Shown here in pieces: positions 16,870 to 53,679 of a DNA stretch of 64,000 nt. Each line of letters opens with the position of its first letter. The first letter of the stretch is position 1. Source of the DNA: Zootoca vivipara. Taxonomy: Eukaryota. The notes beneath the pieces were generated by a model, which searched no databases, was not told the DNA's origin, and was given only the letters and a program-made list of their open reading frames with translations. Position numbers and translations under genes: made by a program. Location: NCBI RefSeq assembly GCF_963506605.1, contig NC_083276.1, positions 2,790,001 to 2,854,000 of the forward strand, in the 5' to 3' direction.

Positions 16870-18191
16870 ATTCTGAAGCATTACTGCAGAGCCCTCATGG
16901 CTAAAAATCATGGCTAGCCCTCTCCTCCACAAATCTGTCTGATCCTCTTTTAAAACCCTCTAGGTTGGTGGCCATCACTGCCTCATGTGGAAGAGAGTTC
17001 CGTAGTTTAACTCTGCGCTCATTTGCTTGCACAAAGCAGAGGTTAGACTTTATCCGTTTTTTTACTGAGTGTTCCTTTGGAGTTGTTTGGTGGGGAAGTT
17101 ATTCTGCAAAGCAAATTCATCCTGATTCGGGTTGAGGGGTGTTTATACATCGAAGAACCATTAATTATCCTTCCACCCACCCCACCCACTTTTGAAGGCC
17201 CTTCCCATCACTTCCCTTGTCTGGTTCTTTCCTAAAGTGGATTTGTTACGCAAGGGCAACAAAGAGAGTTCATCTTACTACTTCAACTGCACAATACTCA
17301 ATTTCAGATGCCCTTAAATCGCTCCCACAAAATGTTGGCAGTTTCTGGAGGCACGAAGGGACTCCAGGAGAAGGCATCAAGAAGACCAGGGCCCTGCAAG
17401 GGTGATCATCAGGGATGATGGGACTTGTAGTCCCAAACATCTGGAAACCAGTTTAGAGACAGCTTCAATGGACCGTATCTGGGAATCGGAATTTACATTG
17501 TTGGGGGATCACGCTATTACCCATTTCTAAATAAAAGTGAGCTTGCGTATTTACCTGTGGTTACGGTTACAGAAGGGCTTGTCTGTCTCTGCAACTTAAA
17601 GATCCTAAAAGCATTTTCCCTCTCACCTTCCTATGCCGGAGCGCCAGTCCGGGTGCGCTGCGCTGACCCCTGCTGGCGGCGCCGGGGAAGTGCGCGCGGC
17701 CCGAGCGGCACTTCCTGGCTGTGGCCAGGAGGGAGCGGTCGCGCAGCGCTCTCGGGTCCTTGGGAGGTCTTGGGAGAAATGCAGCTCAACGGGGCCAGAA
17801 AGGGCTTGCAGAGCGCCGTGCAAACTCCCTTTCCCGCCCCGCAGTCCCCGCCACCCGCGGCATCCCGAGATCTCCGTGCCCACGGGGCCAGTGGCTTTTC
17901 CTGCGGGCTGAGGAATTCCTGCAAGCGGCTGGGGATTATCCTGGGGGCCAAGGCATCCTCGGGAAGGGTTGGGCGGCGATTTCCCTGGATGGAATAAATG
18001 CATTTGCTATTGCTCTTTCTGTAGCGTCTCTCTCGGAATCGCCCTTACTAGACCAATGGTTGTTTTTTATTATTATTATTAGTTCTAGCAGCAGCCCAAG
18101 TTCCTTGCGCCTCCTCTCTCTGAACTGCGCTTATTGATATTCTTCATATTCTTATTTTGTTGCATTGAATTGAACTGAGCTGAGCTGCAGC

Positions 18192-18493
18192 AAAAGAATC
18201 TGGGTTTCGCTGTGTTGCCCAGGTAAGGCTGCAGCGGCTATTCACAGGCGCGGTCCCACTACTGATCGGCACGGGAGTTTTGACCTGCTCCGTCTCCGAC
18301 CTGGGCCGGTTCACCCCTCCTTGGGCAACCTGGCGCGCCTCGGCTNNNNNNNNNNNNNNNNNNNNNNNNNNNNNNNNNNNNNNNNNNNNNNNNNNNNNNN
18401 NNNNNNNNNNNNNNNNNNNNNNNNNNNNNNNNNNNNNNNNNNNNNNNNNNNNNNNNNNNNNNNNNNNNNNNNNNNNNNNNNNNNNNNNNNNNN
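18192..18493 (-). ncRNA. RN7SL: 7SL (SRP) RNA gene, copy 1; 5' half hidden by N-run
   Basis: Minus strand of 18196-18345 reads CCAGGTTGCCCAAGGAGGGGTGAACCGGCCCAGGTCGGAGACGGAGCAGGTCAAAACTCCCGTGCCGATCAGTAGTGGG... (SRP S-domain helices 6-8 and 3' Alu strand), followed by TTTT. The 5' end is estimated from a ~300-nt length and falls inside Ns 18346-18509. Confidence 0.93.
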
Positions 18494-18509
18494 NNNNNNN
18501 NNNNNNNNN

Positions 18510-18645
18510 AACTGCGCCTCTTGGCTCGGCCCGGGGTGACGTCACGGGAGAGGGGCGGGGACAGGAGGCGCGGGGCACCACGGGAGAGACAGAGCCCGCC
18601 ACGTGCGCGCGTGCGCGCTCCGGCGCGGCCTTTCCTTCCCTCGCC
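18510..18645. promoter_or_regulatory. Bidirectional Pol III (7SL) / Pol II (RPS29) promoter, copy 1
   Basis: CRE/ATF palindrome TGACGTCA 18537-18544 (~44-51 nt upstream of estimated 7SL +1, as in human RN7SL1), GC box GGGGCGGG ~18552, E-box CACGTG 18600, NRF1-like GCGCGTGCGC, then the TOP tract. Confidence 0.75.
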
Positions 18646-18659
18646 AGGCGCCGAGCAAG

Positions 18660-19685
18660 ATGGGGCACCAGCAGCTCTACTGGAGCCACCCGAGGAAGTT
18701 CGGCCAGGGATCCCGGTCCTGGTGGGTGGAAGGCGGCGGGAGGGAGGGAAGGGGGTCGGGGGGTCATTAGGGTGAGGGGGGGCCGGAAGGAAGGGAGGGA
18801 GCCATGAGGCGCCTCAGGGAGGGAAAGAGGGAAGAGAAAGGGGGGCAGAGGGGGCGCTGTATAGGGAGTGGGGGGGAGAGGAGGGAAAGGGCAGCTAAGC
18901 CCGGGGGGAGGGGTCTCGGGGGGGGCTGAGGGGGCGCTTCCTCCGAGGGGGGAGGGGGGAGTAAAGGGAGGGGAGGGGGGCAGAGGGGGCACTTCCTCCG
19001 AGGGGGAGTATAGGGAGTGAGGGGTCCCTCCTGCCCCCCCCCCCCGCTGACCCACAGGCCTCTCCCCCCCCCCCCCACAGCCGCGTGTGCTCCAACCGCC
19101 ACGGCCTCATCCGCAAGTACGGGCTCAACATGTGCCGCCAGTGCTTCCGCCAATACGCCAAGGACATCGGCTTCATCAAGGTGAGGTGGGAAGGGGGGTG
19201 GATGGATGGACGAGGGCAGAAGGGGACGGGGTGGGTGGGTGGGTGGGGGACCCCCTTTCTCTGGGGAGAGAGGCCAGCGAGGGCCGTTAGCCCTGCTCCT
19301 TGCGCTGCCCAGAGCCTAAAAGGCGGGCAGAAGGGGCGAGTAATAAAGAAGCAGGGACGTTAATGCAGAGGGAAGTCAGGGGGGGTGAAGGGGGGTGGGT
19401 TATGGTGATGGGATAAAAGGGAGAAATGTATAATATGAATGATAGTGTAATGTTATGAGAGAATGTATTGTTTGTGAAATAATAATAATAAAAAATAAAA
19501 GGCGGGCAGAAGGGGCGAGGAGCCAATTGCTTCTTCCCAAGAGGAGAGAGGCTCGAGAGTAGAAAAAGGGGCCTCTTGGGTCCTGGCAGTCACAGGCCTA
19601 GAGGAAGAAGCCACGGTTTGGGGAGACTCCAAGAGAAAGCCACACTAAACGCCTTTGCTCTTCTCTCACATTTCAGCTGGATTAA
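18660..19685 (+). CDS. RPS29: 40S ribosomal protein S29 (uS14), copy 1; 3 coding exons
   Basis: Exons 18660-18721, 19081-19180 and 19677-19685 with GT-AG introns give [56 protein letters not shown] (56 aa, matches vertebrate RPS29). 5'TOP tract CTTTCCTTCCCTC at ~18630; AATAAA at 19793. Confidence 0.97.
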
Positions 19686-51820: not shown

Positions 51821-51834
51821 CTTGCTCGGCGCCT

Positions 51835-51970
51835 GGCGAGGGAAGGAAAGGCCGCGGCGGCGTGCGCACGCGCGCACGTGGCGGGCTCTGTCTCTCCCGT
51901 GGTGCCCCGCGCCTCCTGTCCCCGCCCCTCTCCCGTGACGTCACGCCGGGCCGAGCCAAGAGGCGCAGTT
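51835..51970. promoter_or_regulatory. Bidirectional Pol III (7SL) / Pol II (RPS29) promoter, copy 2
   Basis: Mirror of copy 1: TGACGTCA 51936-51943, CCCGCCCC, CACGTG, GCGCACGCGC and TOP tract on the minus strand. Confidence 0.75.
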
Positions 51971-51986
51971 NNNNNNNNNNNNNNNN

Positions 51987-52288
51987 NNNNNNNNNNNNNN
52001 NNNNNNNNNNNNNNNNNNNNNNNNNNNNNNNNNNNNNNNNNNNNNNNNNNNNNNNNNNNNNNNNNNNNNNNNNNNNNNNNNNNNNNNNNNNNNNNNNNNN
52101 NNNNNNNNNNNNNNNNNNNNNNNNNNNNNNNNNNAGCCGAGGCGCGCCAGGTTGCCCAAGGAGGGGTGAACCGGCCCAGGTCGGAGACGGAGCAGGTCAA
52201 AACTCCCGTGCCGATCAGTAGTGGGACCGCGCCTGTGAATAGCCGCTGCAGCCTTACCTGGGCAACACAGCGAAACCCAGATTCTTTT
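51987..52288 (+). ncRNA. RN7SL: 7SL (SRP) RNA gene, copy 2; 5' half hidden by N-run
   Basis: 52135-52284 is the 3' half of 7SL, identical to copy 1, with helix-8 GNRA loop GAGA. Pol III terminator TTTT at 52285-52288. The 5' end is estimated inside Ns 51971-52134. Confidence 0.93.
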
Positions 52289-53679
52289 GCTGTTACAACT
52301 AATAATAATATTAATAATTGCGATTCAGAGAGAGACGCTACAGAAAGAGCAATAGCAAATGCATTTATTCCATCCAGGGAAATCACCGTCCAACCCTTCC
52401 CGAGGATGCCTTGGCCCCCAGGATAATCCCCAGCCGCTTGCAGGAATTCCTCAGCCCGCAGGAAAAGCCACTGGCCCCGTCGGCACGGAGATCTCGGGAT
52501 GCCGCGGGTGGCGGGGACTGCGGGGCGAGAAAGGGAGTTTGCACGGCGCTCTGCAAGCCCTTTCTGGCCCCGTTGAGCTGCATTTCTCCCAAGACCTCCA
52601 AGGACCCGAGAGCGCTGCGCGACCGCTCCCTCCTGGCCACAGCCAGGAAGTGCCGCTCGGGCCGCGCGCACTTCCCCGGCGCCGCCAGCAGGGGTCAGCG
52701 CAGCGCACCCGGACTGGCGCTCCGGCATAGGAAGGAAGGGGAGAAGGAAAATGCTTTTAGCATCTTTTAGTTGCAGAAACAGAGAAGCCCTTCTGTAACC
52801 GGAACGGACAGGGAGAATCGCTTTTGCTCTAGTCTCCTGGATGCCAATCTGCCAGGCGGACTTCGCATTCAGGATTATTATGCATTACTAGAGGAAAAGC
52901 CGACAAACATCGTTGTGGGTTGGTCTCTTTTTAATGAGCACAAGGTAGGAGCACAAGAGAGGCTGAAGAAAAGGATGCAGTTAAGAAACAGGGCTGGTAT
53001 GCACAAAGTATAAGTATAAGACATGGCTCTTGACAGCCCCTGAGGGACAGTTTGTCCAGCCTCCTTGCTGAGAGATCCAGGCTGGAGCCACACCTGTATT
53101 TAAGTCCCATCTAGTCTAGGTGGGCTCACTTTGTGTTTCTTACCTACCCTTCGCCATAAGGTCCCATCTCAGGTTACAGCAATCTTTGTGACATTAAAAT
53201 CAGTGTAAAATAAATTACTGTCAATAGAATATGATGGGGCCTAAAAACATGCATGTCAGGTGTCAAAGGGTTTTTAGGATGGAGGTTGGACTAGATGACC
53301 CTTGGGGTCCCTCCAACTCTACGGTTCTGTGATTCTATGAAGTCACTACGGGGAAATACGGCTTCGATCTTATCTGGGATTCCAGTAGAGGGCAATGCAG
53401 TTCAACAATCTATTATTGTCTCATACAGAGGGAAGCAGAAGTCAAGATACGGACATCAGCATTTGAGGCTGTAAGCAATATTTCAACTACAGTGGTACCT
53501 TGGTTTACAAACTTAATCCCTTCCAGGAGTCTGTTCTTAAACCAACGCTTTCTTAAACAGGGGGACTCAATTTACAAATGGAACACACTCAACATGTTCT
53601 GCTTCCAAGGCAAAGTTTACAAACCAAAACACCTACTTCCAGGTTTGCAGAGTTCTTAATCCAAGTTGTTCATAAACTA

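Follow-up and report, generated by a model that had tools for sequence, protein, structure and literature searches.

A probable DNA-level duplication of the RPS29–7SL module in Zootoca vivipara, possibly left by an inversion through staggered breaks

Introduction

Ribosomal protein (RP) genes of animals are mostly single-copy, which has been attributed to dosage balance (PMC6993855), and Diamond-Blackfan anemia counts RPS29 among its haploinsufficiency genes (10.1101/365890). What should be made, then, of an assembly in which RPS29 appears twice? In a stretch of 64,000 nucleotides from Zootoca vivipara (assembly GCF_963506605.1, contig NC_083276.1, positions 2,790,001 to 2,854,000 of the forward strand; hereafter the window, with coordinates counted from its first base), two intron-containing RPS29 genes stand in opposite orientation, each next to a divergent gene for 7SL RNA. 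A second promoter-bearing copy that shows 3% neutral divergence without decay raises the question of whether the dose has been doubled, buffered or shared, and this can be asked directly because one base in the 3′ untranslated region (UTR) distinguishes the two mRNAs. We interpret the locus as a real DNA-level duplication left by an inversion via staggered breaks, with both copies likely still active; as a whole, this interpretation is tentative and in our judgment has somewhat less than an even chance. The locus may also show, in a vertebrate, how genes can be born where inversions break the chromosome.

Results

Two RPS29–7SL modules in inverted orientation

A repeat search and self-BLAST of the window revealed a single long inverted pair (17560–20400 on the forward strand against 52805–49012 on the reverse strand; Table 1), the two arms of which are separated by 28,611 bp. 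A sequence-only reading of this DNA had claimed that paired, inverted modules of RPS29 and 7SL occur here and that each RPS29 gene carries a terminal oligopyrimidine (TOP) tract, a polyadenylation signal and a divergent 7SL gene; both claims are borne out, the 7SL genes being readable in the 3′ half alone. The spliced RPS29 frames of the two arms are identical and encode 56 amino acids in three exons, with GT–AG introns and two CxxC motifs. Exon 2 of each copy matches PF00253 (37.4 bits; cut-off, 27), AATAAA sits 108 bp past each stop codon, and a TOP tract lies upstream of each start codon. The sole difference between the two predicted mRNAs is a 3′ UTR base, C at 19721 in the left copy and T at 50423 in the right. 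Introns, promoter and flanks were all copied, and a retrocopy origin of the second RPS29 is therefore rejected, in agreement with the earlier proposal that the whole module was duplicated at the DNA level.

Each 7SL gene matches RF00017 over model positions 147–299, which cover the S domain and 3′ end, with 95.4 bits against a gathering score of 70. The 5′ half, containing the Alu domain and internal promoter, reads N in both copies. The 7SL halves came from separate searches; a scan of the whole window at Rfam gathering thresholds returned zero matches, and a tRNA scan, which is uninformative, found none. In the promoter shared by each RPS29–7SL pair, the cAMP response element (CRE; TGACGTCA) is placed at about −52/−45 of 7SL, as counted from a start estimated from the model, with a GC box further upstream; no further copy of this element occurs in the window. 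Mammalian 7SL genes have a CRE at −51/−44 plus a GC box (PMC7279448). The sequence at the TATA-like position −31/−24 is the same in both copies and, by eye, weakly resembles the mammalian consensus. Left and right promoters differ by four substitutions in 120 bp, three of which lie 6–12 bp upstream of the TOP tract, and the outputs of the copies may therefore differ. Past the 7SL terminator, at ~360 bp on the left and ~240 bp on the right, lies a GC-rich element that carries an ETS-type motif and may serve as an enhancer or promoter; the duplication stops 66 bp beyond it.

Over 2,444 aligned bases the arms show 57 substitutions, and 20 small indels further separate them; their average identity is 97.7%. 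Presumed neutral sites have diverged by 3.2%, which at squamate rates would correspond to a few million years, a lower bound if conversion occurs. The right arm is ~1 kb longer because of indels: it has ~400 bp more in intron 2, a 622-bp non-coding transposon in the 3′ flank of the gene, and another 128 bp. The transposon, which we take to be hAT-like, has an empty site in the left arm near 20158. An intron-2 insertion is common to both arms and is therefore older than the duplication. It contributes sense-strand AATAAA hexamers, three on the left (19342–19499) and five on the right (50645–51198), which are possible premature polyadenylation sites. Directly behind its 7SL terminator, the left arm has an extra 99 + 19 bp; these ~118 unique bases (18045–18187) would tag read-through by RNA polymerase III according to copy.

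Left-type sequence in five samples of the species

An RP gene can appear twice in an assembly through false duplication. RPS17 and RPS17L in hg19 proved to be single-copy by read depth (10.1101/365890), and the pair described here could likewise have been created if a contig combined two divergent alleles or two alternative arrangements of a single locus. RPS17L was a segment of ~200 kb, however, whereas the arms are short and inverted, with 20 small indels, 3.2% neutral divergence and four unrelated flanks. Allele-level identity with shared flanks, by which a false duplication is recognized, is absent from this locus.

Sequencing runs provide a further line of evidence. Of the 31-mers in 18510–22100, 22% are common to the right arm, 31% are words specific to the left arm or its junction, and 47% belong to the flank, such that, without a left-type arm, a genome could contain no more than 0.69 of them. 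Five runs from five samples and two studies held 0.81–0.85 (binomial P < 2e-7 each). The other 15 of the 20 holder runs listed, among which there was no RNA run, fell below the 0.69 bound (X6–X15, 0.21–0.65; X16–X20, small) and are uninformative. These word shares cap the difference from other animals at 0.5–0.7% per site; the arm-to-arm difference of 3.2% is about five times larger. The presence of left-specific words in five samples thus makes a false duplication unlikely. Two considerations weigh on the other side: the shares bear on left-type sequence and not on both copies in one animal, and one of the five samples is maybe the source of the assembly, the other four coming from one study. 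On balance, the two-copy locus is very probably a real duplication, as judged from sequence comparisons, and an assembly artefact appears unlikely.

Conservation of the transcribed parts

Substitutions are unevenly distributed between functional and other parts of the module. The transcribed parts differ at one of 489 sites, as opposed to 52 of 1,628 elsewhere (Fisher P 2e-5); had one copy been drifting freely, 7.8 differences would be expected (P 0.003, or 0.007 without the outer edge). The CpG islands have kept 109 CpGs in both arms, with one deamination-type loss on the left and three on the right, and far heavier losses would be expected of a copy that had been methylated and silenced. We read the low divergence of exons, 7SL and CpG islands as reflecting mainly selection on two transcribed copies, and both copies are probably constrained or active.

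Identity at transcribed sites and undecayed islands would also fit gene conversion. One could envision a real duplication in which one copy is weak or silent and identity is kept by conversion, with either the opposite arm or cDNA as donor. Identical runs between the arms cross exon borders into introns, as does the longest one visible (178 bp from 19078). RP paralogs in fungi are homogenized by conversion (PMC6993855), and the three substitutions right before the TOP tract would suit a weak copy. Two observations weaken the case for constraint on both copies. Coding sites alone give no significant deficit (0 of ~131 nonsynonymous sites, P 0.12; 0 of 34 synonymous sites, P 0.33). The 207-bp GC-rich element is untranscribed and equally invariant, so that conversion, which can account for part of the pattern, or a further regulatory element is in play. 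Divergence among neutral blocks is uneven (permutation P 0.007), as conversion would lead one to expect, but the unevenness is gone once the outermost 66 bp are dropped (P 0.23). Moreover, CpGs have not decayed in either island, the blocks without change are the functional ones, and each copy has preserved its splice sites, CRE and AATAAA, all of which argues against a silent copy maintained by conversion; we consider that explanation improbable.

Gene order in relatives and the origin of the arms

The arms are unique sequence that flanks an interval on either side as mirror-image copies, one of the features expected of duplication by a staggered-break inversion. Their four flanks are mutually unrelated and have no match at a common third place. 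What is new at this locus is that accession order in relatives puts the enclosed ZSCAN gene near LRR1 and leaves space in which RPS29 could lie. In Podarcis lilfordi, LRR1 corresponds to CAI5764893–896 and the ZSCAN ortholog (87–90% identical) to CAI5764898, on a contig of equal length; in the python Liasis olivaceus, the best ZSCAN match (63%) is KAM6462510–514 and LRR1 is KAM6462517. On the assumption that accession numbers follow position, one or two proteins, presumably RPS29, would lie between ZSCAN and LRR1, and the accession order in these two outgroups makes ZSCAN–RPS29–LRR1 the likely old order. The promoter motifs of ZSCAN lie 2.3 kb past the left arm, and 19.6 kb of DNA containing another zinc-finger (ZNF) gene separate ZSCAN from the right arm. 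Each copy may therefore keep one old neighbor, ZSCAN for the left and LRR1 for the right, as expected of staggered breaks that invert the interval (PMC1885836).

According to this model, the starting order would have been ZSCAN–RPS29/7SL–LRR1. Staggered breaks would have opened to either side of the 2.8-kb module, and another break past the zinc-finger genes. Once the gaps had been filled in and the ends rejoined, the inverted segment would be bounded by a module on each side. Of the two, the left would preserve the junction with ZSCAN that formerly lay downstream, and the right the junction with LRR1 that formerly lay upstream. Introns and flanks would later have drifted by ~3% and gained insertions, and exons, 7SL and CpG island would not.

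Such events have precedents in Drosophila, where 17 of 29 inversions had staggered breaks (Ranz et al. 2007, PMC1885836). As here, unique genes ended up as inverted duplicates flanking the interval, with 12 one-sided and 6 two-sided cases. The Drosophila copies are at most ~1.9 kb long and mostly decayed, whereas the present module measures 2.8 kb, contains two apparently intact genes, and is attributed to an inversion that we infer.

Several points speak against an inversion. Apart from the length of the arm, which exceeds all of the Drosophila cases, no duplication was found at a second breakpoint. Adjacent ZSCAN and LRR1 accessions occur in two of four comparable species, the numbers in Vipera and Varanus being far apart and uninformative, and accession adjacency does not reveal strand or what the intervening proteins are. 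In addition, the argument from order would fall if the 13-finger gene of the interval, which has no close ortholog among 120 listed of 845 matches (best, 59%), was a later insertion.

That same possibility makes copy-and-paste a serious rival. In this scheme, a template switch during replication or repair used the module next to LRR1 as its source and placed an inverted copy ahead of ZSCAN. The interval itself was not reversed, and its 13-finger gene and long terminal repeat (LTR) element were acquired afterwards. Inverted interspersed gains with this layout are known from human rearrangements (PMC6902434). The apparently lineage-specific 13-finger gene, the very young LTR element and the unseen duplication at a second breakpoint would all be accounted for. 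The scheme demands, however, a landing 2.3 kb ahead of the promoter of the module's own old neighbor; the remaining 12.4 kb from ZSCAN to the right arm would still hold a gene absent from the P. lilfordi order, and the ends of the left arm show neither target duplication nor clear microhomology. We regard copy-and-paste as rather unlikely and lean slightly toward an inversion. Insertion of an arm carried by a transposon or bounded by target-site duplications is rejected, as inspection of the left arm edges disclosed no terminal repeats and no target-site duplication.

The gene order in relatives thus suggests that the arms may be the product of a past inversion rather than the cause of a future one. 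Recombination between them that inverts the enclosed segment is nevertheless plausible, since comparable inversions are known in humans between inverted repeats, some of which hold paralogous genes; those inversions span segments of 5–226 kb, and recurrence is indicated for 11 of 16 (Aguado et al. 2014, PMC3961182). The longest perfect run visible between the present arms is 178 bp, and one across 7SL would possibly reach ~350 bp if the N part is identical. Human breakpoints fall in stretches of very high identity, whereas the present arms are 97.7% identical with many indels and one orientation is known. An arm-to-arm inversion would leave both RPS29 coding sequences unchanged. The fullest scenario, an inversion-born and fixed pair with both modules fully active, identity kept by selection plus conversion, output split between diverged promoters and a ZNF segment that flips back and forth, strikes us as unlikely; if true, it would be a natural test of a vertebrate absorbing a doubled dosage-sensitive RP gene.

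Discussion

The locus appears to be a rare case of a known process in one lineage, and its sequence points to a likely real and apparently well-preserved duplicate. The sequence-only reading had held that extra RPS29 copies are usually retrocopies, and this accords with data on mammals, in which 28 of 14,552 RP duplication events were DNA-mediated (Dharia et al. 2014, PMC4219774). Such duplicates yield a copy with introns and promoter, as observed here. All 154 RPS29 rows in Table S1 of that study are retrocopies or retro-pseudogenes, in a file that lacks the label DD-RP and may omit DNA-mediated events; unlike in those rows, a gene transcribed by RNA polymerase III was copied along in Z. vivipara.

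In mammals, 7SL likewise sits beside RPS29, and functional 7SL genes normally occupy more than one locus. Mouse Rn7s1 and Rn7s2 lie near Rps29 and Nemf (PMC11828898). The second mouse locus is near Nemf and not near a second Rps29, however, whereas RPS29 was copied together with 7SL in the present case. No prior account of this RPS29–7SL duplication was found by title or start of abstract in the literature searched, which mostly excludes subscription papers.

Other features of the window

Table 1 Coordinates of features in the window, with strand and supporting details.
Feature	Position	Strand	Details
Left arm	17560–20400	+	2,841 bp; CpG element, 7SL, promoter, RPS29, 3′ flank
Right arm	49012–52805	−	3,794 bp; LRR1 start codon at 2,971 bp distance
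RPS29, left	18660–19685	+	coding exons 18660–18721, 19081–19180, 19677–19685; AATAAA 19793–19798
RPS29, right	50459–51820	−	coding exons 51820–51759, 51459–51360, 50467–50459; AATAAA 50346–50351
7SL, left	18194–18492	−	3′ half fits RF00017; 5′ end estimated from model length; TTTT terminator
7SL, right	51988–52286	+	readable part identical to left 7SL; ends in TTTT
Shared promoter, left	18510–18642	+	CRE 18537–18544, GC box 18553–18558, TOP tract 18629–18642
Shared promoter, right	51838–51970	−	CRE 51936–51943, GC box 51922–51927, TOP tract 51838–51851
GC-rich element	17626–17833 (left), 52529–52735 (right)	.	ETS-type motif; 0 substitutions in 207 bp between arms
Intron-2 insertion	19317–19519	+	flanked by 24-bp direct repeats; found in both arms; ~400 bp longer in right
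Non-coding transposon, right arm only	49363–49984	.	622 bp; 14-bp terminal inverted repeats (13/14 match); 8-bp target duplication
ZSCAN gene, enclosed	22650–29417	+	SCAN domain and 4 C2H2 fingers; ETS motifs 22653, 22688; start codon 24049
13-finger C2H2 exon, enclosed	38810–39997	+	
LTR element, enclosed	41673–48880	+	7.2 kb; two identical 710-bp LTRs; right arm 131 bp away
LRR1	55776–60792	+	first and large third coding exon identified; adjoins right arm

The LTR element has no long reading frame in its interior (longest stop-free stretch, 142 codons), and a motif after its 5′ LTR resembles a primer-binding site. Its LTRs show 0 differences in 710 bp, so that the element is very recent and far younger than the arms, and it is rejected as the cause of the duplication. 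The 4-bp flanks of the element differ at one position, which is odd at such a young age and could be explained if the LTRs underwent conversion or if two insertions recombined.

LRR1 shares 97% identity with its counterpart in Lacerta agilis and 94–95% with those in Podarcis, which places the animal among the lacertids. The P. lilfordi ZSCAN protein is annotated without a SCAN domain, whereas the gene in the window has an intact one; this reflects either a deletion or an annotation gap. Just past ZSCAN lies a degenerate zinc-finger remnant (30004–30145) that is 72–87% like the 13-finger exon.

Young 3′ fragments of a long interspersed element, which we take to be CR1-like, occur in both orientations at 3740–5207, 30831–31296, 34907–35595 and 54222–54763 and are 93–96% alike over full matches. 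The longest has a reverse transcriptase domain, and the fragments give additional inverted pairs inside and across the arms. In the left part of the window, a TATA-like motif precedes another stretch of N. A repeat fragment at 11588–12386, matching 25451–25815, is interrupted by an insertion of ~425 bp, and a GC-rich tandem array with units of ~45–70 bp occupies 13974–14329.

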